Shown piece after piece: positions 1 through 51,791 of a stretch of 51,791 bases of DNA. The stretch is from a virus (lineage: Duplodnaviria; Caudoviricetes): the IMG/VR virus record IMGVR_UViG_3300023218_000017, positions 1-51,791 of that record. One strand, written 5' to 3'. The first letter of the stretch is position 1. Every line of letters starts with the position of its first letter. A program made the position numbers and the translations under genes. The notes under the pieces are model-generated. The model saw only the letters and a list, made by a program, of their open reading frames with translations, searched no databases and was not told where the DNA came from.

Positions 1-2
1 TG

Positions 3-113
3 GCAAACTGGCTCGGCGTCGACGACGGTGACCGGCGGGTGATGTGGGAATGCGACCAAACTTTAACCCGGGGCGCTCCCGGCGTTTGTGTGGTGATCCG
101 TGATGCAAGTTGA
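3..113 (+). CDS. C-terminal fragment of a gene entering the window, possibly a RusA-like Holliday junction resolvase
   Basis: Frame 3 reads ANWLGVDDGDRRVMWECDQ...GVCVVIRDAS*; the LGxDD...W..Q...V.V.I pattern resembles RusA-family C-termini. Partial. Confidence 0.4.
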   Translation, partial: ANWLGVDDGDRRVMWECDQTLTRGAPGVCVVIRDAS

Positions 114-561
114 TTCCGAAGAACTGAAAGCTGCGATTCTTGCCTCTCGAGCCGCCGGAAAGATGACCAACCGGCTCGGCCGGCTGGGGCTGGAGATCGC
201 CCGGGGGTACCTGAGCCGCGATCAATTCGGGGGGTATTCGGTTCAGGAGAAAGAAGACATTCTGGGGGCCTGGTCGGTCCAGTTCGTGAAAAACTGGAGC
301 AACCTGGATCCCGAAGCGAATCCGCACAGCTACATCACCACCATCGTCCGGAACTGCTGGAGGATGTACGAACGGTCGACGCAGCGGCGTCTTCGGCGGG
401 AACACGCGAAGGCCGAAGAGGCGTATTTTGAGCAAATGAACTCGATCAGCCGTTTTGTGCGATACCACGCCAACTTGTTGGGAAATTTCGAGGACGTGCT
501 TTCAGCCGAAGAATTCCACCAAAAGATCTCCGGAGGCATAGATAAAGGTAATCATGAGTAA
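100..561 (+). CDS. T4 gp55-like late-transcription sigma factor
   Basis: VDSEELKAAI...TNRLG...IARGYLSRDQFGGYS..KEDI...NWSNLDPEANPHSYITTIVRNCW parallels the gp55-family pattern (VNNKE...IA..LS...NF..Y...E.MI...NFDP...NP.AY.TQI); lies directly upstream of terS. Confidence 0.7.
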   Translation: MMQVDSEELKAAILASRAAGKMTNRLGRLGLEIARGYLSRDQFGGYSVQEKEDILGAWSVQFVKNWSNLDPEANPHSYITTIVRNCWRMYERSTQRRLRREHAKAEEAYFEQMNSISRFVRYHANLLGNFEDVLSAEEFHQKISGGIDKGNHE

Positions 562-1057
562 GAAACTGACACCGAAACAGGACCGCTTTTGCCGGGAATA
601 CGTGATCGACCTGAACGGGACACAGGCGGCGATTCGGGCGGGATACTCGCCGAGGACGGCTGATCGGCTGGCTTATGAGAACTTGAGGAAACCTGAGATT
701 CAGTCTCGTGTTTCGGAGTTGGCTAAGAAAGTTGATGAAAAAGCGGAGGTGAATGGCGAGCGCATCCTGCGGGAACTACTCTTGATGGCTCATTTTGATC
801 CTTCCGATGTGGCCAACAAGTGTTCGAGTCCGGCGGAGATCGCCCTGCTTCCGGAGCATGTGCGACGCGCAATTGCGGGATGGTCCTGGGACAAGCACGG
901 CAACTTCATCCTGAAGTTCCACGACAAGCTCCGCGCGCTCGAACTCCTCGGCAAGCACCGCGCCCTGTGGACCGAGCGGCATGAGCACAAGCATTCCGGC
1001 GATATGACATTCAACATGGTCTTGCAGACCGAACCTCCAACCAAAGAAACAAAATGA
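554..1057 (+). CDS. terS: Terminase small subunit
   Basis: N-terminal LTPKQDRFCREYVIDLNGTQAAIRAGYS HTH motif and C-terminal K.HDKLRALELLGKH, typical of TerS. Confidence 0.92.
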   Translation: MSKKLTPKQDRFCREYVIDLNGTQAAIRAGYSPRTADRLAYENLRKPEIQSRVSELAKKVDEKAEVNGERILRELLLMAHFDPSDVANKCSSPAEIALLPEHVRRAIAGWSWDKHGNFILKFHDKLRALELLGKHRALWTERHEHKHSGDMTFNMVLQTEPPTKETK

Positions 1058-1305
1058 TACTCGACCACGAAGGGAACACGGTCGGCTTTGCGGCCGACAA
1101 GCAACAGGCACTTGCCAAAATCAACGACCGGATCGAAGAGCGCATTCGCTGGGTGCTGGGCGGCCGCGAACCAGCCGAGGGCGAAGTGGAGCAAAAAGGA
1201 AAGCTTGAAGTCCAGCCGAACGGGAACTGGGCGTTCACCTGGGAGGACGGCGTTTTGCTCCGTGTGCTTTTCGAGAGAGGAAAGATAAGGATGCTCAATG
1301 AGTGA
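1054..1305 (+). CDS. Hypothetical protein, 83 aa
   Basis: ATGA overlap with the terS stop codon. Confidence 0.6.
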   Translation: MILDHEGNTVGFAADKQQALAKINDRIEERIRWVLGGREPAEGEVEQKGKLEVQPNGNWAFTWEDGVLLRVLFERGKIRMLNE

Positions 1306-1435
1306 TATTTGCATCATCTGCGCAAATCCCGTGGGACCCGGCCGGACGCACTCAGATGGCGAATGGCCATCGAAACCCTGCGGCTATCCTTACTTTGTTG
1401 TCGGATATTACCCGCGCGGCTTGTTATGCTTTTAG
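1298..1435 (+). CDS. Small hypothetical protein, 45 aa, with CxxC
   Basis: MSDICIICANPVG...LLCF*; the ATG overlaps the previous stop (ATGAGTGA). Not in the ORF track. Confidence 0.4.
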   Translation: MSDICIICANPVGPGRTHSDGEWPSKPCGYPYFVVGYYPRGLLCF

Positions 1436-1457
1436 ACAAACAACAAAAGGATGTTAT

Positions 1458-1652
1458 ATGAACATAAACACACTACTAACTATTATTTGGACGCTGATAC
1501 TTATTAAAATGCTTAAAACAAGAAAAATAGACAAGGAGTTCTGGTATGAAAAGGGCCGAAATGATGGATGGACTCAAGGGTGGGACGATTATCGTGTAGC
1601 TAAAAATACTCATTCCCAAAGTAAACATGATGAACACCGAGATGTGACATGA
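1458..1652 (+). CDS. Small AT-rich membrane-anchored hypothetical protein
   Basis: AAAGGA RBS before ATG 1458; hydrophobic N-terminus; YEKGRNDGWTQGW repeat-like tail; markedly AT-rich. Confidence 0.55.
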   Translation: MNINTLLTIIWTLILIKMLKTRKIDKEFWYEKGRNDGWTQGWDDYRVAKNTHSQSKHDEHRDVT

Positions 1653-1725
1653 CTGCCCGCTCTCCAGCTTCCACCTCGCCAATGACTCCCGCCGGGCAGT
1701 CATTGTCACCAGCGTCTAGTTCTGC
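1629..1725 (-). mobile_element. attC-like site L1
   Basis: Minus strand: GCAGAAC-tagac-GCTGGTGA-ca-A-tgactgccc...gggcagtca-tg-TCACATC-tcggt-GTTCATC, i.e. 7-5-8...7-5-7 geometry with two unpaired bases. Confidence 0.8.
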
Positions 1726-2413
1726 TTTGCCGCCGGTGCTCGATGCGTGCTGCGGATCTCGGATGTTCTGGTTCGACAAGCGCGATCCTCGCGGCCTGTT
1801 CGTTGACAAACGCCGCGAATCCCACACGCTGACTGACATCTCAAGCAAAGGCGGAATCCGGGAACTGGTGGTCGATCCTGACCTGCAATGCGACTTCACC
1901 GCGCTGCCCTTCCCTGATGCGTCGTTCCCTCTGGTGGTGTTCGATCCTCCACACTTGGAGCGCAACGGATCAAGCGGATGGGTAGGGCTGAAATACGGAA
2001 CGCTGAAAGGCGACTGGCGGGAAACGATCCGCTCCGGATTCTCGGAATGCTTTCGGGTGCTCAAGCCCGATGGAACGCTCGTCTTCAAGTGGTGCGCCGA
2101 CGAAATCCCGGTATCGCAAATCCTCGCGCTGACTCCAGAGCGGCCGCTCTTCGGACACAAAAGCGGCAAGCGGCAGCAAACGCACTGGATCACTTTTCTT
2201 AAGCAGAACGATAAAGTGGAGCTACCGCCGCCATCGACTCCCCAAAACGACCATGAAACCGAAAGACAAAAAAGAGTTCCAGGCTCTCACAAACCTCCAA
2301 GATCGCGCCAAGTGGCTCCTGAAAAAAGGCGTCACGGCGAAAGTGACAATCAACACCGAAAGCCTCGAAGTGGTGGTGACCGCCTGCTCGGCTGGTGTGG
2401 CGCTTCCTGGTGA
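1649..2413 (+). CDS. Class I SAM-dependent (probable DNA adenine) methyltransferase cassette gene
   Basis: VLDACCGSRMFW SAM-binding motif, VVFDPPH catalytic motif, FRVLKPDGTLVFKW. The core is about 1730-2200; the C-terminal tail is read-through past a truncated attC. Confidence 0.88.
   Translation: MTARSPASTSPMTPAGQSLSPASSSALPPVLDACCGSRMFWFDKRDPRGLFVDKRRESHTLTDISSKGGIRELVVDPDLQCDFTALPFPDASFPLVVFDPPHLERNGSSGWVGLKYGTLKGDWRETIRSGFSECFRVLKPDGTLVFKWCADEIPVSQILALTPERPLFGHKSGKRQQTHWITFLKQNDKVELPPPSTPQNDHETERQKRVPGSHKPPRSRQVAPEKRRHGESDNQHRKPRSGGDRLLGWCGASW
2203..2232 (-). mobile_element. Truncated (half) attC-like site L2
   Basis: GCAGAAC is the exact complement of GTTCTGC at the start of the MTase cassette. 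It is followed by one arm only (gataaagtggagctaccgccgcc); no partner arm found. Confidence 0.5.
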
Positions 2414-2483
2414 ATGGCAGTCCGAAGAGGAGGCTGTCGTCGGTGGCACCACATGGCTCGCGCAGAAAGCAGGTCTGGCATAA
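2253..2483 (+). CDS. Hypothetical protein, 76 aa
   Basis: Its TAA stop lies inside the GCATAAC core of the next attC-like site. Confidence 0.65.
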   Translation: MKPKDKKEFQALTNLQDRAKWLLKKGVTAKVTINTESLEVVVTACSAGVALPGEWQSEEEAVVGGTTWLAQKAGLA

Positions 2484-2541
2484 CAATGAGCACTAGCATG
2501 AGTGAGGAACGAACGAATTGTCTAGCTGCGTCTGGTTCTCC
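2478..2541 (-). mobile_element. attC-like site L3
   Basis: Minus strand: GGAGAAC-cagac-GCAGCTAG-a-ca...tg-CTAGTGC-tcatt-GTTATGC; extra base at position 4 of L''. Confidence 0.85.
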
Positions 2542-2821
2542 ACGAGCAAGGATGCTCGCTCTCACTGCTGCGGGATGTTCTTTTCAGTGGGAACCGGGGT
2601 TGAGTCACGGCGGTGACGGGACATATAACGACTCGGCCTATATTCATTGGCTTCGAGCGGAAAAAATCTGTGAAACTTGGGGATTTTCCTACGACGAATG
2701 CAAGCAAGCATGGCAAGACTTTCGGGATCGCCATAAAGACCGATACCCGAGCGGTAATTGGCAACCCGTAGAACAAGCTTATTTGGATTCATTGGAGAAC
2801 GGAAAGGTCGAGCATGAGTGA
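2498..2821 (+). CDS. Hypothetical cassette protein (start inside attC L3; ATG 2486 is an alternative)
   Basis: Starts MSEERTNCL; its 3' part is duplicated, inverted, at 51666-51791. Confidence 0.7.
   Translation: MSEERTNCLAASGSPRARMLALTAAGCSFQWEPGLSHGGDGTYNDSAYIHWLRAEKICETWGFSYDECKQAWQDFRDRHKDRYPSGNWQPVEQAYLDSLENGKVEHE
2675..2800. repeat. 126-bp perfect inverted repeat, copy 1 (partner 51666-51791)
   Basis: Base-by-base match of acttggggattttcc...attggagaac to the reverse complement of the window end. Confidence 0.95.
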
Positions 2822-2857
2822 GGAACGAACGAATTGTCTCGAACCGTCTGGTTCTGT
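2794..2857 (-). mobile_element. attC-like site L4
   Basis: Minus strand: ACAGAAC-cagac-GGTTCGAG-a-ca...tg-CTCGACC-tttcc-GTTCTCC; same loop as L3, with compensatory stem changes. Confidence 0.85.
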
Positions 2858-3089
2858 GTCGCGGGCAGTCGATAACTGCCGCAAGGCTAAAGTAACAAGG
2901 GTTAAGCCTGCGATTCATCACGGTTGCATTCGATTCCTGATTTGCGTCGAAGGTGTTGAGGAAAACGTAGGGGGGATCGTTTACAGTTTTGACGATTCGG
3001 TTTCTTTGTCAGAAATGCAAAGTATCGCCAATGAGGTGAATGAGATTATTTCACAGAACGGGGATTATACGACAGCTGTCCGATATTAA
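2814..3089 (+). CDS. Hypothetical cassette protein, 91 aa
   Basis: Starts inside attC L4 (MSEERTNCLEPSGS); bounded by GTTCTGT and ACAGAAC. Confidence 0.7.
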   Translation: MSEERTNCLEPSGSVSRAVDNCRKAKVTRVKPAIHHGCIRFLICVEGVEENVGGIVYSFDDSVSLSEMQSIANEVNEIISQNGDYTTAVRY

Positions 3090-3096
3090 AAACCAG

Positions 3097-4371
3097 ATGC
3101 CTGATATTCCCGTAACCAAAAATTACGTCAGCCTAAAAAAAGCGGACGCGGCGGGGAACTTTTACAAGGTCCTTGAAGGGTCTTCCGGCTCGGGCAAGAC
3201 CTTTTCGATCATCCAATATCTGATCGAGAAAGCGATGAGCGGCAAGCGGCGTATCACGGCCTATCGAAACGATCAGGCAACGTGCCGGGATTCGATTATC
3301 CTGGATTTTCAAATTGTGATGGCCGAACAGTTCGGGCTCTGGAAGCAGGCGAATTGGAATGGATCGAACATGGAATATAAATTCCCGAATGGATCGATCT
3401 GGCAATTTCGGGGCACGAACACGCCGGCCAAATTGCACGGGCCCCGGCGCGAAATCTCCTGGGGAAACGAGGTGATGGAGATCAGTTGGGAAGCGCACCG
3501 GCAAATCTCCCTGCGGACGAGTGAGGAGATGATCTATGACTTCAATCCGTCGCTGAATTACCACTGGATTTTCGACCGAATCATGCCCCGGACGGACTGC
3601 GCGCATATCCACTCGACATTCCGGGACAATCCGATGCTCCCGGAGAAAGCCCGGCTGGAGATCGAGGGCATGGAGCCGACGCCGGAGAACATAGCCGCGG
3701 GCACGGCGGACGAATGGGGCTGGTCCGTCTATGGTCTGGGCCGACGCGGCCGGCGCGAAGGGGCGATTTTCAAGCTGTGGGACATCACTGACGATTGGCC
3801 GGACCCGATGCTGTGCCAGCGGTGGGGGTTCGGGATCGACTATGGTTTTTCGCTGGATCCCACGGCCGTCGCGGAGTGTGCGCTGTTTCAGGACCGGCTT
3901 TATCTTCGGGAAAGACTCTACGAAAAAGAGCTGGTCGCCCAGGCGAACGCGCTCGACCCGGAAACACCCAGCATTGAGGGCGCGTTGCGGGAAATGGGGA
4001 TCCCGGAGCACGCGCGAATCCATGCGGAAAGCGCACGGCCGGAGATCAACCGGGCACTCCAGAAGTCGGGATTCAAGATTGTGCCTACGATCAAACGTTC
4101 GGATTCAATCCTCGCGGGGATCGACCGCCTGCGCACCTACCCGATAATGATCCACCGAAATAGCCAGAACATGCAGCGGGAGTTCGAGAGCTACACCTGG
4201 GACAAGAACGCGGCGGGCGAGTATCTGGATCGTCCGATTGACCGGGACAACCACCTGGTTGACGCGGCCCGGTATTGGGCGCTCGGAGAAATGGCTCCGC
4301 AGCGAAGCATAATGGCAGGGAAACGGCCGAAGTCACGCCGGGCGAAAAGCAACTTGCGGACATGGCGGTGA
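3097..4371 (+). CDS. terL: Terminase large subunit, PBSX-like
   Basis: Walker A EGSSGSGKT, Walker B ISWGNEV, DFNP motif, HSTFRDNP, nuclease motifs GIDYGF and NHLVDAARY. Confidence 0.93.
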   Translation: MPDIPVTKNYVSLKKADAAGNFYKVLEGSSGSGKTFSIIQYLIEKAMSGKRRITAYRNDQATCRDSIILDFQIVMAEQFGLWKQANWNGSNMEYKFPNGSIWQFRGTNTPAKLHGPRREISWGNEVMEISWEAHRQISLRTSEEMIYDFNPSLNYHWIFDRIMPRTDCAHIHSTFRDNPMLPEKARLEIEGMEPTPENIAAGTADEWGWSVYGLGRRGRREGAIFKLWDITDDWPDPMLCQRWGFGIDYGFSLDPTAVAECALFQDRLYLRERLYEKELVAQANALDPETPSIEGALREMGIPEHARIHAESARPEINRALQKSGFKIVPTIKRSDSILAGIDRLRTYPIMIHRNSQNMQREFESYTWDKNAAGEYLDRPIDRDNHLVDAARYWALGEMAPQRSIMAGKRPKSRRAKSNLRTWR

Positions 4372-23491: not shown

Positions 23492-23496
23492 CCCTT

Positions 23497-23778
23497 ATGC
23501 CAAACGCCAAAAAAGACTGGACCGCAATCGTTATAATTACGCTTCAATCCGCCATCCTCGGCATCGGGGGGTGGACGCTCTGGTCCGTGCACCGTCACGA
23601 GGCACGCATTATGGCGCTGGAGGAGTGGCGCGGCGGCGAGCGGGCCTACACGCCCAGCGACGCCAAGGATGACATGAGGCGACTCGCCAACGAAATCGAG
23701 AACAGTAACTCGGTCCTCAAAGGCCACGACCGCCGCATCCGAGAGCTGGAGCTGATGCTGGCCCGGATGAAGCAGTGA
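23497..23778 (+). CDS. Single-TM coiled-coil protein (holin/lysis accessory candidate), paralog of 40539-40820
   Basis: MPNAKKDW, then a TM helix, then ...GHDRRIRELELMLARM. Confidence 0.65.
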   Translation: MPNAKKDWTAIVIITLQSAILGIGGWTLWSVHRHEARIMALEEWRGGERAYTPSDAKDDMRRLANEIENSNSVLKGHDRRIRELELMLARMKQ

Positions 23779-23816
23779 AGAATCTATGAACCCACACACC
23801 AATCGCAAAGCTGTGA

Positions 23817-39781: not shown

Positions 39782-40528
39782 TCAGAGGTCGAGGTTGTCG
39801 CCGCGCCCGCCGCGCAAGCGCCAGTAGGTGTCGCCGTCCACCTCGCCCGTCTCCGGGTCGGTGGCCTCGGCGAGGGCGTGGAGGGCGCGGGCGCGCTCCC
39901 GGTCCTCGGCGGTCATGCGCTCCGCCGCGTAGTGTGCCCGCACGGCTTCGCGGTTGCGCCGGTCCGTGAGGTAGCCCCATAGGGACATGTCGACCGGCTC
40001 GGCGTCTCTCGCCGGTGCGCCCACGGTCGATTGCGGTGCGGCGGGCACGCTCAGCGCCTCCGGCGTCGGTGTCCGGCTGTCGAGGTATTGCTGCGCGGCT
40101 TCGGCGGCCCATGCGCTGACCTGTCTGACGGTCGTGAGCGCCTCGGGGTCGAGTTGCCCGGCGTCGATCCGGCTCTCGATATGGGCGGCCAGCACGGAGA
40201 CGAGGAGGTTGGCCTGCGCCCTGCGGGTGGGGCTCAGGTCGAGGTCCACCAGCTCGGCGTCCACGAGGGTCGCCACGGCGGCGAGGGTGACGGTGCCGTC
40301 CTCGTCGACGGACGATTGCAGGGCTTCGTCGACGGCGATGATGTTTTCGGCGGTCTCGATGGAGTCGCCGGAGCGCTCGATGGCCTCGTATGTCGCGATC
40401 TGGACGACGCCCTGCGCGATGACAGGATTGTCGCGGATGGTCTGGCAGCCGGCAGCAAACAGCCCGAGGGCCGTGATTAGGGTGGCGACCAGCAGGCCGC
40501 CGAGGGTGTATTTGGTGTGTGGGTTCAT
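39782..40528 (-). CDS. Lipoprotein (lysis-region)
   Basis: Signal peptide ending FAAGC. Confidence 0.65.
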   Translation of the reverse strand: MNPHTKYTLGGLLVATLITALGLFAAGCQTIRDNPVIAQGVVQIATYEAIERSGDSIETAENIIAVDEALQSSVDEDGTVTLAAVATLVDAELVDLDLSPTRRAQANLLVSVLAAHIESRIDAGQLDPEALTTVRQVSAWAAEAAQQYLDSRTPTPEALSVPAAPQSTVGAPARDAEPVDMSLWGYLTDRRNREAVRAHYAAERMTAEDRERARALHALAEATDPETGEVDGDTYWRLRGGRGDNLDL

Positions 40529-40538
40529 GATGTGTAAA

Positions 40539-40820
40539 TTATTGCTCCATCCGGGCCACCATCAGCTCCAGCTCTCGGAGGCGGCGGTCGTGGCCCCGTA
40601 AAGCGGTGTTCATCGCCTCCAGTTCGCGTTCCACACTCGACATGTCGGCACGCGCATCCTCCGGCGTGTAAGCCCGCTGGCCTCCGCGCCATTGCTCGAG
40701 CACCGACAGCCGGACCTCAAGTTTGTGGGTCGTATAAATGTTCCACCCTCCAAGGCCGAGTAGCATACTTTGTAGCGTCATGATGATTAGTGCGTTCCAG
40801 TCTTTTTTGGCGTTTGGCAT
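40539..40820 (-). CDS. Single-TM coiled-coil protein (holin/lysis accessory candidate), paralog of 23497-23778
   Basis: MPNAKKDW...GHDRRLRELELMVARM. Confidence 0.65.
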   Translation of the reverse strand: MPNAKKDWNALIIMTLQSMLLGLGGWNIYTTHKLEVRLSVLEQWRGGQRAYTPEDARADMSSVERELEAMNTALRGHDRRLRELELMVARMEQ

Positions 40821-40863
40821 AAAGGCGTCTGGCTCGGGCGGAGAGGGCCGAGAATCTCGATTT

Positions 40864-48292: not shown

Positions 48293-49723
48293 TCAGCCGG
48301 CGTAGAAGCCGGCGCAAAGTTCCTGTTCGTCTTGCTCTTCCTTCCACTCGGTCACCGGGCGGATGGATTTGCTGTTCTCGGTGAGGTTCACGCGCTCGGG
48401 CGTGGGAGCCATGAGGCTGCCCAGCACCGCGTCCGCTCGGTCCGGGCTCGGCAGGCCGTCGGCCTTCATCTTTTTTTTGCTCTGCACCTTGAGCGCCCCG
48501 TCGCTGGTCCGGTCATCCCACAGCCGCGTGGTCAACTGCCCGATCAGGTCGTCATCGTTCGGCAGGATGATTTCTCGATCGGCGATTACCTTCGCACCGC
48601 GGCCCCACAGCTCACTGATCAAATCCTTGTAGGCGCGCGGGTCGCTGGCTTTCGCTCCGTTCTCGATCCGGCGGATCGGCCATCCCAGCTCATGCAGCCG
48701 GTCGATAATCGGCTTACCCAGCCCGCTGTTGTCCCCGCTGATCTCGTCCGCATCAAGGCCCAGCTTGCGGAATTGCCGGATCAGCTCACCGCACGCCGCC
48801 ATCGTATTGCGCTCGCGCCAGCATTTGACGAGATGCACCTGATTACCATCACGGAATGCCAACACATTTTCGTCCCCACCTGCGGCGAAGTCGACAAACG
48901 CGTGCCGGTCGCCCGGCTGGAATTGCGGCGGATGCGCCAGGCACAGTTCGAGCGACGCGCTGTCGATGACGTTCCCCGCGTCCGGATCCGGCGCAAACTC
49001 GCCATACACGGAGCTACGCACGAACGGATGATCCTCGCCCCACTTTTTGATGATATTGCCGATCTTCTCCCGGTCCAGGTGCGGACAGTCTTCCAGCCCC
49101 ACCGCATGGGTACGGTAGAGCGCCCGGTTCTTGTTGAAGCTCCAGTAAAAATCCCCCGTGGATCCGCCGGGGCTGCTCATCAGCAGCGTACGCGTCGGAC
49201 GGCAACGGTCGATTGCGCTGTAGATCGCCTGCTTCACGCTCTTCGCTTCGTCCACCAGCACAAACAGAGGCGGCGTTTCCATAATCGCCTTACCCTGCTC
49301 GTCCTCTCCGATCTTGATCTGAGGCAGATCGTGGAAGCCCTCGAATCGGCCCGGATCGTCCGTCGAAAACGCCACGAACATGCTACCGTTCGGAGCCTGG
49401 ATGCTCGTCTCGCGAAACTCCCATCCCCGGAACGCCGGGTTGTTGCTCTGCCGGCGAAGCGCCGGCATCAGCTGGTATTTCACCTGGCGAAACGATCCCG
49501 ACGTGGCCACCGTTACGCTGCCCGGATACACCATCATGTGCCACAGGATCGCCACCACCGCGACGTGCGTCGTTTTCCCCGCCTCATTCGGGCATCTCAG
49601 CGAAACCTGTCCCGGTCCCTCCAGGTCGAACAGCACGGCCGCTTGCCAGTTGTAGGTCGGGATTCCCAACACCAGATCGGCAAAGCCCACGGGCGATGCG
49701 GCTATCGGATCAATTTCGACCAT
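48293..49723 (-). CDS. terL: Terminase large subunit
   Basis: Walker A RCPNEAGKTT, Walker B VLVDEA, MSSP, FVDFAAGGDE, SPDRADA; GGAGG RBS before ATG 49723. Confidence 0.9.
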   Translation of the reverse strand: MVEIDPIAASPVGFADLVLGIPTYNWQAAVLFDLEGPGQVSLRCPNEAGKTTHVAVVAILWHMMVYPGSVTVATSGSFRQVKYQLMPALRRQSNNPAFRGWEFRETSIQAPNGSMFVAFSTDDPGRFEGFHDLPQIKIGEDEQGKAIMETPPLFVLVDEAKSVKQAIYSAIDRCRPTRTLLMSSPGGSTGDFYWSFNKNRALYRTHAVGLEDCPHLDREKIGNIIKKWGEDHPFVRSSVYGEFAPDPDAGNVIDSASLELCLAHPPQFQPGDRHAFVDFAAGGDENVLAFRDGNQVHLVKCWRERNTMAACGELIRQFRKLGLDADEISGDNSGLGKPIIDRLHELGWPIRRIENGAKASDPRAYKDLISELWGRGAKVIADREIILPNDDDLIGQLTTRLWDDRTSDGALKVQSKKKMKADGLPSPDRADAVLGSLMAPTPERVNLTENSKSIRPVTEWKEEQDEQELCAGFYAG

Positions 49724-50501
49724 GCTGCGCCTCCCATTCCCGCCGTTTGACCGCAAAGGCCTCCGTGACTTCGTTTCCGGCGGTGTAGTGCACCACTTCG
49801 CCGCTCAGGTTCACGTTCAAGTTCAGCTTGCCCAGCAAACTGCCGAGTAAAGTATCCTCCTTCGTGGCAAGCGCGGCATACCGTCGCTCATCGGTTTGGG
49901 CCGCCGCCAGATCGCGCTCCGCCGTCTTGATCGCCTCCCGGTGCAGTTTACTGTCCTGCACGCCCTCGGCCATGCGCTCCTGCCGCTCCCGCTCCAAAAA
50001 TTCCACTTTCGCCTGCGCCTGCTCGATGGCTTCATGCGCCGACTTCGCCCGCTCGTGCCACATCACGCTGCGCTCGTAGACCCGGCCCACCAGCTTGTCC
50101 GCATCCTGGCTGACTTGTGACAGCGCCGCCTGGTAAATCCGAAATACCTTAGCCTTCCTTAGCGTTTTCGAGGCCCAGACGCCCGCCCCGTCCTTCTCGC
50201 CCTGGTACCCCGCCTCCAGCGCCGCCCGCGCCATCTGCCCGTGCTTCAGCAGATTGTTGACGAACTTCAGTTCCTTCGCACTCACGTCCGCAATGCCCGA
50301 TGGTAGGGATTCCGTTTTCACTCCCAGATTCGCGAACCCATCCAGCGCCAACTGCTGGCTCTGCTTCAATGCTGCGGTGGCGGTGCTCACACCACCTATA
50401 CGGGCAGGCCTGCGCCGTCCGTAAAAGTCTGTTTTTCTCCCCAGTTCTTCCCAGATCGTGCCAAACCGTGCCAAGGATCCACTTTTCATCCCGCCGCCCA
50501 T
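49710..50501 (-). CDS. terS: Terminase small subunit (start uncertain)
   Basis: SAKELKFV...RAALEAGY...ASKTLR HTH; overlaps terL. Confidence 0.72.
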   Translation of the reverse strand: MGGGMKSGSLARFGTIWEELGRKTDFYGRRRPARIGGVSTATAALKQSQQLALDGFANLGVKTESLPSGIADVSAKELKFVNNLLKHGQMARAALEAGYQGEKDGAGVWASKTLRKAKVFRIYQAALSQVSQDADKLVGRVYERSVMWHERAKSAHEAIEQAQAKVEFLERERQERMAEGVQDSKLHREAIKTAERDLAAAQTDERRYAALATKEDTLLGSLLGKLNLNVNLSGEVVHYTAGNEVTEAFAVKRREWEAQHGRN

Positions 50502-50524: not shown

Positions 50525-51337
50525 TCAATACTCATAGAAAAAATCGAAATCCCTGATAGCTGTCTCGTAAGCTTCAGATCTTCCGCGCACGTATGCGTCA
50601 TGTCTATCTCCCATCCGAAGCGACTCATCAGAACGAAGCTCTTTTTGGTAGCGCTTTACAGTGTCTAGTCGATCAACCAGTTGCTGCCTATAACCAGCCG
50701 GGTCAGGGCAATCCCTTGCCGCTCCGCCGTTCGTTACTTCGTCGTGCTTGTTTTCTTTTTGGTTTTGATAGTTCTCCTTTGGTTGTTTCGGGATTCCTGC
50801 TCTCCACGTCAGCTTCATGAAGACCATCCAGTGCGTCTTCGCGGTTTTCCCGCAGCGTTGGCCGAACAGCGGCCGCTCCGGTGTGAGCGCCAGGATCTGC
50901 GAGACCGGGATGTCCGATTCGTTCCACTTGAAGACGAGCGTCCCTTCGGGTTTCAGCACTCGGAAGCATTCCGCGAATCCCTTGCGAAGCTCCTCCTTCC
51001 AGTCGCCTTTTAGCGTCCCGTACTTGAGCCCGACCCACCCTTTTGCACCGTTACGGACGAAGTGCGGGGGATCGAAGCAGACGAGAGCGAAGCTCTCATC
51101 CTCGAATGGAAGCGCCGTGAAGTCGGCCACGATGTCCGGATTCACGATAAGCGTGCGCTTCCCGCCCTTGCTCGACTTGTCCTTCAGTTCGTGGGTCTCG
51201 CACCGCTTATCCAAGAAGATTGCCCGGTCATCGGACCGGTCGAACCAAAACATTCGAGACCCGCAGCATACATCGATCACCGGAGCTGAACCAGACGGAT
51301 CAGCCAATTCATTTCGTTCGTTCCTCACTTCATTCAT
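50525..51337 (-). CDS. SAM-dependent methyltransferase cassette gene, read through into the next cassette
   Basis: VIDVCCGSRMFW and FDPPH motifs; homolog of 1649-2413; starts inside attC R2. Confidence 0.85.
   Translation of the reverse strand: MNEVRNERNELADPSGSAPVIDVCCGSRMFWFDRSDDRAIFLDKRCETHELKDKSSKGGKRTLIVNPDIVADFTALPFEDESFALVCFDPPHFVRNGAKGWVGLKYGTLKGDWKEELRKGFAECFRVLKPEGTLVFKWNESDIPVSQILALTPERPLFGQRCGKTAKTHWMVFMKLTWRAGIPKQPKENYQNQKENKHDEVTNGGAARDCPDPAGYRQQLVDRLDTVKRYQKELRSDESLRMGDRHDAYVRGRSEAYETAIRDFDFFYEY
50688..50813 (+). mobile_element. attC-like site R1 (degenerate R' core)
   Basis: CTATAAC-cagcc-GGGTCAGG-gc-aatccc...gggatt-CCTGCTC-tccac-GTCAGC; paralog of R3. Confidence 0.7.
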
Positions 51338-51357
51338 GGCTGTCCTCGTTGTTATCA
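51285..51357 (+). mobile_element. attC-like site R2
   Basis: GCTGAAC-cagac-GGATCAGC-ca-a...tg-GCTGTCC-tcgtt-GTTATCA; loop related to L3 and L4. Confidence 0.85.
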
Positions 51358-51627
51358 AAATTTTCCTCCCATTGCCTTGTAGGTTTTTTTAACCTCGTTG
51401 GTCCACGGGAGATAGCAGCCGGAAAAATCTCCTGTGTGCTTGTGTGCAAACCTCTTCCCGCACCGCTCGCACCGCACCAAGTCAGCGTTCCGTGAAAGCT
51501 CCTGCTCAATTCTGAAGTCACAACCCCCGAGTCGACACCTTGACCAGATAACCAGCCGAGTCAGGAAATCCCTTACCTCGCCGCCGTTTGTTGCTTCGTC
51601 GTGTTTGTTTTCTTCGTTGGTCTTCAT
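51355..51627 (-). CDS. Small Cys-rich (Zn-ribbon-like) cassette protein
   Basis: AAAGGAG RBS and ATG inside attC R3; CRLGGC...CERCGK. Confidence 0.7.
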   Translation of the reverse strand: MKTNEENKHDEATNGGEVRDFLTRLVIWSRCRLGGCDFRIEQELSRNADLVRCERCGKRFAHKHTGDFSGCYLPWTNEVKKTYKAMGGKF

Positions 51628-51672
51628 AAGTCTCCTTTGGTTGCTTCGGGATTCCTGCTCTCATTGTTCTCC
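51546..51672 (+). mobile_element. attC-like site R3
   Basis: AGATAAC-cagcc-GAGTCAGG-a-aatccc...gggatt-CCTGCTC-tcatt-GTTCTCC. Confidence 0.85.
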
Positions 51673-51791
51673 AATGAATCCAAATAAGCTTGTTCTACGG
51701 GTTGCCAATTACCGCTCGGGTATCGGTCTTTATGGCGATCCCGAAAGTCTTGCCATGCTTGCTTGCATTCGTCGTAGGAAAATCCCCAAGT
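51666..51791. repeat. 126-bp perfect inverted repeat, copy 2 (runs to the window end); 3' part of the shared cassette gene on the - strand
   Basis: Reverse complement is identical to 2675-2800. Confidence 0.95.

Follow-up and report, generated by a model that had tools for sequence, protein, structure and literature searches.

Two phage arrays of attC-type hairpins with genes on the bottom strand

Integrons are treated as bacterial platforms, and their strand rules are said to point promoterless genes away from the Pc promoter. In the parts of the literature considered here, the polarity of an attC site is given by an extra base near L'', cleavage takes place on the bottom strand, in the R' AAC, and intI, which encodes the integrase, is on this strand past attI (Nivina et al. 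2016, PMC5027507). Clusters of attC sites have already been published for phages, often together with DNA methyltransferases, and five of six such sites were recombined by IntI1, according to the parts of that report considered here (Qi et al. 2023, PMC9892861). The window analyzed here is a whole virus record of 51,791 bases, and it holds two arrays in which the cassette genes lie on the bottom strand of their attC-type sites. The observation is real and general, and, provisionally, no description of reversed phage cassettes has turned up in print in a search that covered mostly openly accessible papers and parts of the text of Qi et al.

The arrays share with the canonical cassettes of class 1 and sedentary chromosomal integrons the AAC and GTT cores, spacers of 5–6 nt, the extra base near L'' and the R' crossover (PMC5027507, in part). 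Unlike in canonical integrons, genes of the window type are on the bottom strand, co-directional with intI and with the phage operon, the hairpin of each unit is translated and holds start and stop codons, and new cassettes would join at the end far from the promoter. The same direction of intI and cassette genes is found in inverted-integrase integrons such as those of Treponema, but in the description considered here (Cury et al. 2016, PMC4889954) it is intI that is flipped there relative to attC, whereas here the genes are turned round and intI has its usual polarity. A translational likeness exists with ORF-11 at attI1 and with short ORFs in attC, where, in the passages considered here, the frame also crosses the crossover point, the stop is provided by the incoming cassette and translation is coupled (PMC8876359). 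ORF-11 is a short leader at the first position, whereas in the window the cargo gene itself lies at every junction. Cassette translation is reported, in the portion considered, to set downstream expression (PMC11511950). In the T4-type PeSL cassettes, repeated stem-loops between small phage genes mediate shuffling, as here, but PeSLs are promoter–terminator units in the portion of that paper considered, while the sites of the window have attC geometry, no above-chance promoter and recombination at a 3–4 nt core (Arbiol et al. 2010, PMC2839356). A strong sigma-70 promoter plus a terminator stem-loop per element, the mark of a PeSL, was not found in positions 1–3300 of the window.

Within the phage clusters of Qi et al., P12002L shares the layout of the window (the listed bottom strand of its attC1 is the gene strand), ctTUS972 carries the methyltransferase family of the window in an inverted array, and TJE1, unlike the window, has canonical polarity. 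The portions of that paper's text considered here mention just "divergent directions", with nothing on an antisense arrangement or on a start codon, and they do not contain the inversion rule, the frame lock, the attI-like terminus or the phage IntI clades described below.

The window contains no replication genes and may be partial. Two different tailed-phage head-and-virion modules (1–24700 and 24817–51791) face each other within the record, module A on the plus strand and module B on the minus strand, and the data fit both a single molecule and a mis-join of the two. Array A is located between terS and terL, and array B before terS, where it is truncated by the contig end (Table 1). Relatives of the module A terL were limited to an identical copy in viral contigs, with zero in metagenomes, and this search therefore yields no independent empty-site genome. 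A relative of module B, at 68%, has no array before terS. An Rfam scan of the window gave nothing at E up to 1. Small genes near 23492–23802 and 40512–40825, one per module side, are related (85–87%), and the depth in one public run, X2, differs between the sides (29 vs 19). For the 83-aa ORF after terS (1144–1268), a second allele with seven differences coexists in all three runs compared.

Table 1. Features of the two arrays and of the flanking phage modules
Feature	Position	Strand	Basis or remark
Module A landmarks: terS, terL, portal, capsid	554, 3097, 4960, 7939	+	
Terminase small subunit, module A, upstream of array A	554..1057	+	Pfam Terminase_2, E 2.9e-34
64-aa ORF, stop overlaps first cassette start (ATGA)	1458..1652	+	no PHROG match
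Site E1, intact hairpin of attC type with start codon ATG 1649 and C as extra base; one end of the deletion joint falls at its left core	1633..1721	+	gene strand = bottom strand
DNA methyltransferase cassette gene	1649..2413	+	phrog_954, E 2.1e-69
Site E2, decayed, left arm only, ATG at 2253	2207..2255	+	
76-aa cassette gene, ends in TAA at E3 core	2253..2483	+	phrog_18825
Site E3, short hairpin of attC type with start codon ATG 2498 and C as extra base; begins duplicated unit	2482..2537	+	
107-aa cassette gene, MSEERT N-terminus; E4 core read through as Asn	2498..2821	+	
Site E4, short hairpin of attC type with start codon ATG 2814 and A as extra base; the other end of the deletion joint falls at its left core	2798..2853	+	
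91-aa last cassette gene of array A, stop 7 nt before terL start	2814..3089	+	no family match
Putative attI-like site closing array A	3057..3088	+	rank 1/1298 AAC sites; variant contig diverges after 3060
Terminase large subunit, module A	3097..4371	+	Pfam Terminase_3 and 3C
Second copy of 2498-gene 3' end, identical up to B1 left core	51666..51791	-	100% over 126 nt
Site B1, long hairpin of attC type with A as extra base; loop contains SD and ATG (51627)	51550..51668	-	
90-aa cassette gene	51355..51627	-	
Site B2, short hairpin of attC type with A as extra base; left arm contains SD and ATG (51337)	51289..51353	-	
Second DNA methyltransferase cassette gene, fused through decayed B3 to next frame	50525..51337	-	phrog_954, E 1.6e-71
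Site B3, decayed B1 relative (86% identical), core and start codon not intact	about 50690..50810	-	
Terminase small subunit, module B, downstream of array B	49710..50501	-	weak Pfam Terminase_2 match below cutoff; precedes terL-like ORF
Module B landmarks: terS, terL, then portal, capsid	50501, 49723	-	

An intact site runs from AAC through a spacer of 5–6 nt and a 7-nt box to the loop, beyond which come an 8-nt box that includes one extra base, a spacer of 5 nt and the GTT. The initial annotation had placed five start codons inside such hairpins, and all five ATGs (1649, 2498, 2814, 51337 and 51627) are confirmed there, each within an AAC...GTT element, 16 nt after the AAC in four cases and 41 nt after it in the fifth. 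Our scanner finds three sites in 1500–3100 and two in 50600–51791, all of the same polarity. None of 200 mononucleotide shuffles matched the real site count in either array region, and the remaining 47.5 kb of the window give eight weak matches, none scoring 11 or higher. With at least two same-strand attC sites within 4 kb and no integrase, array A (three intact sites by this scanner) and array B (two) are by definition CALIN, not canonical cassette arrays.

Pairing of the L box was compared for 19 sites, namely the five of the window and 14 from other contigs picked by their loop sequence. Placing the extra base on the right arm, relative to the gene strand, lets 124/133 positions pair, vs 71/133 with a left-arm placement and 103/133 with none, and several pair types are found in every column of the alignment. 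In the window this base is C or A, in the three class 1 sites scanned it is G, and in 201 of 248 bacterial sites it is C. As DNA, the short hairpins are no stabler than shuffles (z from -0.6 to +1.5), site 1633 alone reaching -2.2, and the minimum-energy fold of E3 (2482) differs from the attC fold; the RNA folds of the sites do display the stems. By eye, a possible decayed site can be made out at about 1373–1427 before the 1458 ORF, with an AT-rich stretch and a promoter-like match at 1459–1486 downstream of it.

By the published rule on the extra base, its position on the 3' arm of the gene strand places the genes of the window on the attC bottom strand. This holds for all cassette genes of both arrays, whereas canonical cassettes have the gene on the top strand with attC 3' of it. 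As a control whose polarity call is independent of the scanner, a single attC DNA pattern was run through viral contigs and bacterial genomes. Among the matches listed, the flanking genes are distributed over bottom and top strands as 130:2 around 73 viral sites, but as 14:130 around 99 bacterial sites, counts that do not represent independent trials because the sites are interrelated. The viral set derives from 101 distinct sites listed, of which 7 with short flanks and 21 with weak hairpins were dropped, and the bacterial set from 132, with 11 and 22 dropped on the same grounds. At least six bacterial loci with pattern sites also hold an IntI above the TIGR02249 cutoff. The inverted orientation of attC proposed initially is thus borne out by both the geometry and the contrast between viral and bacterial flanks.

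The explanation we favor, and consider probable, is that the arrays consist of integron-type cassettes with genes on the attC bottom strand, served by an IntI in trans and translated through stop–start coupling. The chemistry would be canonical, with the bottom strand folded and the crossover taking place in the AAC of its R' core. Because the gene is reversed, the R' core lies at the 5' end of the hairpin in the reading direction, making the unit a hairpin plus its downstream gene. A putative integrase of the IntI family, supplied by the host, by another phage or by an unassembled part of the genome, would excise and insert such units, and new ones would be added at an attI-like site just before terL; the sites are predicted to be recombined by IntI as folded bottom strands. 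The upstream gene, usually without a stop of its own, would enter the next hairpin in the frame that makes the AAC an Asn codon and come to a stop adjacent to the following ATG, and the passing ribosome would also open the stem that hides this ATG. Any cassette could thus follow any other within the phage operon. The same recombination geometry with reversed genes amounts to a different solution for expression, one that suits a phage operon. It would offer a mechanism, site-specific in nature, by which some of the mosaicism seen among small phage genes could arise, anti-restriction methyltransferases included, and would account for odd N- and C-terminal peptides shared by unrelated phage proteins and for misplaced start annotations (ctTUS972).

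The translational part was evaluated on 192 of 217 viral sites, for which the downstream frame was clearly sense in 105 cases, antisense in 13 and unclear in 74; the gene caller is a heuristic, which missed the 1649 gene and left many frames unclear. An in-hairpin ATG opens into the gene at 88 of the 105 sense sites (84%), compared to 39/210 (19%) off-frame. For upstream genes, 114 cases were clearly sense; in 83 of them the AAC is an Asn codon of the gene, and in 17 the gene terminates at the core with TAA. A stop codon is found within -11 to +10 nt of the in-frame ATG in the Asn frame at 75/88 sites, vs 16/88 and 23/88 in the other frames. All five window sites obey this rule, and the upstream stops described in the initial annotation are in place (ATGA at 1649–1652, TAA at 2481–2483 and TGA just before the core at 51353). 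The frame rule for upstream genes is thereby shown statistically. Judging by the frames, the two copies of the 2498 gene acquire different tails in the two arrays, with coupling predicted for both, and according to the frame table an ATGA overlap between the 1458 ORF and the start that follows it would persist in the form with the deletion between E1 and E4 (see below).

It had also been claimed that each hairpin supplies a ribosome binding site and each cassette is self-translating, in which case the upstream stops would be incidental. Clear Shine-Dalgarno sequences before 51627 and 51337, by reading the only ones among the five window starts, and the purine-rich loops (0.55–0.66 in four of the five sites) are in line with this, as is a strong Shine-Dalgarno sequence before 12 of the 88 in-hairpin ATGs of the viral sites. 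The other 76 lack one, the ATG is predicted to be paired in the mRNA in 60/88 (median 0.89; at 1649 it is fully in the stem), and the stop placement is strongly frame-specific, all of which makes independent translation from the hairpin unlikely. Supply of the ribosome binding site is accordingly not a rule, and the data fit a dependence on the upstream ribosome. The units look coupling-dependent rather than self-translating, and we infer stop–start coupling instead of independent initiation, with B1 and B2 as exceptions that bear a Shine-Dalgarno sequence. Such arrays may exert no polarity on terL. Inside array A, the decayed site at 2207 breaks the coupling. At 2411–2416, the stop of the extended methyltransferase is directly followed by an ATG in frame with the 2498 gene (ORF 2414–2821), a start that may constitute a second coupling route around the decayed E2.

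The natural junctions define the mobile unit. Among 208 viral sites, 22 pairs have the same downstream gene and a different upstream one, and their hairpins are 0.55–1.0 identical (median 0.83), the likeness starting at the left AAC. In the eight pairs sharing only the upstream gene, two of which involve the window, the identity is 0.35–0.69, with a background median of 0.54. Bacterial arrays display the same linkage in bottom-strand terms (36 pairs at 0.88–1.0 and 28 pairs at 0.65–0.93). The hairpin thus lies 5' of its gene and travels with it, as had been proposed initially, and the crossover occurs at the R' AAC, with exceptions. Four of the 22 same-downstream pairs have a hairpin identity below 0.70, and the methyltransferase of array A is homologous to locus L001 from the right core on, to about 9 nt past the next left core, with a different 5' hairpin. 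These cases indicate that hairpins are sometimes replaced.

Contigs of three public runs from one study (X1, X2 and X3, two of them possibly the source of the window) were compared over 900–3400. One X3 contig joins 1631 to 2797, skipping 1,165 bases that correspond to three cassettes of array A. Only four letters at this joint fit both sides, and they correspond to the left cores of hairpins E1 and E4, which are not related otherwise. The joint contig has a depth of 11.4, vs about 5 for the bases that it skips (the full form having 5.1), and a flanking X3 contig ends at 1635. The joint is seen in a single contig with 26 letters on the short side, below the caution line of the tool, and it is compatible with excision as well as with a strain that never had the cassettes. 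The unit at 2483/4–2800, consisting of hairpin E3 and its gene, has a second context in the three runs. Different letters precede 2483 in X1 and X2, the start of B1 follows 2800 in X1 and X3, and the depth of the unit in X2 (48.3) equals the sum of the two sides (19.2 + 29.1). In this second context the left core is TAC, not AAC, and it matches neither AAC nor GWT, the secondary-site consensus given in the part of a preprint considered here (10.1101/2022.09.11.507474). The run contigs show alternative forms of the arrays, not a direction or an enzyme.

Repeated intergenic elements like the T4 PeSL, shuffled by homologous or illegitimate recombination without an integrase, would agree with the identity of up to 91% between sister hairpins, with the replacement of hairpins, and with the lack of an integrase in the contig and in most near-complete array-bearing records. 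Such a process is difficult to reconcile with a natural joint that links unrelated hairpins via four letters only, with junctions at the left AAC rather than across the shared arms, with an attC geometry kept by compensatory pairs, and with the finding of no promoter or terminator signal above chance in 1–3300. We regard it as quite improbable. For the favored integron-type cassettes, the window supplies defined test substrates and a natural deletion joint.

Turning to the products, the initial annotation held that the hairpins endow unrelated proteins with shared N-termini, and the MSEERT peptide indeed heads different ORFs in 12 of 12 metagenome loci, two pairs of which are near-copies. A search with the 2498 protein gave no full-length relative besides an identical copy, and a homologue of the 2253 gene in locus L279 breaks off at the same core. 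The 1649 methyltransferase extends by about 70 C-terminal residues because the next site gives no stop, and the decay of B3 has fused the second methyltransferase to the next reading frame, resulting in a 270-aa protein. Methyltransferase relatives without a 5' hairpin make up 61 of 67 motif matches. If the hairpins were attC sites but the true starts lay past the GTT core, the shared N-terminal peptides would never be made. This would suit the 17 of 105 viral sites that lack an in-frame hairpin ATG, many with one just after it, the GTG or TTG that follows the right core in five of six methyltransferase cassettes, and the wider enzyme family, which usually begins a few residues before motif I. 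The excess of in-frame ATGs given above (84% vs 19%) argues against late starts, and the six methyltransferase cassettes have an ATG inside the hairpin in 6/6 and after the core in 0/6, one of them also being without GTG or TTG, so that late starts are highly improbable. In the methyltransferase of locus L616:2640–3186 (MW202573) the annotated start falls after motif I, and the real start is therefore probably upstream in the hairpin.

That the polarity is mis-assigned, and these are ordinary cassettes with each site 3' of its own gene, can practically be dismissed. In favor of it, the scanner did by our reading call the wrong side for four Virus Rctr41k sites, and the polarity of phage TJE1 is ordinary, but the contrast of 130:2 vs 14:130 among the matches listed was obtained without the scanner for polarity and the junctions tie each hairpin to its downstream gene.

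In locus L481 (740–1100), one reversed MSEERT cassette is located amid an array whose other four genes have ordinary polarity, and the reversed segment has a long open frame on the bottom strand only. Locus L008 (1131–5235) has six reversed cassettes in a row, mostly DNA methyltransferase-like, two of them of the window family. In locus L344 (3858–5541), the loop sequence that encodes EERT is also present in ordinary bacterial attC sites without the ATG, hinting that the phage sites derive from host-type templates. These arrays provide a handle on how cassettes originate, and the frame lock, if true, would constrain the making of new cassettes.

No tyrosine recombinase motif is found in any frame of the 51.8-kb contig. 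An intI gene beside the array, as in complete integrons, occurs in other phages and not in the window: in at least six viral loci from the pattern scan an IntI-like gene comes right after the array in the reading direction, four of them above the cutoff. Searches with two short exact patterns were discarded, as their matches were mostly due to chance. A scan with an alignment of those IntI-like genes gave 63 distinct proteins from the best 80 of 569 loci, 3 of the 63 being plain IntI1. Within these best 80 loci, 43 viral IntI-like genes have at least 1.5 kb upstream; 32 follow at least one site of the window polarity, 20 follow at least two, and 0/43 follow a site of the opposite polarity, the polarity here being the call of the scanner, which was judged wrong on the four Rctr41k sites. 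The genes after those sites run with intI in 58 cases and against it in 3, with 21 unclear, again for these best 80 loci. A quick tree built from 107 proteins does not unite the viral enzymes in one clade but places them among the bacterial IntIs in several phage-only groups, with 16 rows (support 100), 15 rows (96), and 7 and 8 rows (100 and 99).

An IntI above the cutoff is encoded in 5 of 40 array-bearing viral records, six of the 40 having been chosen for an IntI-like gene, and in 1 of 14 near-complete ones, the latter suggesting that supply in trans is likely the rule. In a sample of 151 genomes belonging to the same phylum as a Verrucomicrobiae genome, 39 encode IntI.

A conserved site precedes the phage intI genes. 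A profile built from 11 such sites, chosen by rule without reference to the window, scores 18.3 bits at 3057, vs 12.9 bits, and ranks this position first among the 1298 AAC sites, while nhmmer gives a non-significant E of 6.3. The AAC at 3057 is in frame with the last cassette gene, and an X3 variant diverges right after 3060, its following 30 letters starting like other left arms when read by eye. With an attI-like site just before terL, array A looks like the tail of an integron in which terL takes the place of intI. This site was absent from the initial annotation. An earlier profile, chosen partly by eye, had been used to consider the AAC at 3091 as the end of the array, which was rejected at rank 975/1298. 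As for a Pc promoter on the attI side, no minus-strand promoter-like match is present in 1–3300, and the genes point towards the attI-like site.

The broader proposal is that phages run an integron system of their own, comprising a number of IntI clades exclusive to phages, an attI family of their own and a common pool of cassettes, reversed and frame-locked, that fit into any operon, in which arrays without an integrase would be serviced in trans, would still be rearranging in the sampled population and would occasionally trade with bacterial integrons (L481). On this proposal we are evenly divided. In two further loci, L468 (G002) and L467 (G023), an attI-like site closes the array and the intI behind it is shortened or cut, which can be viewed as stages of integrase loss.
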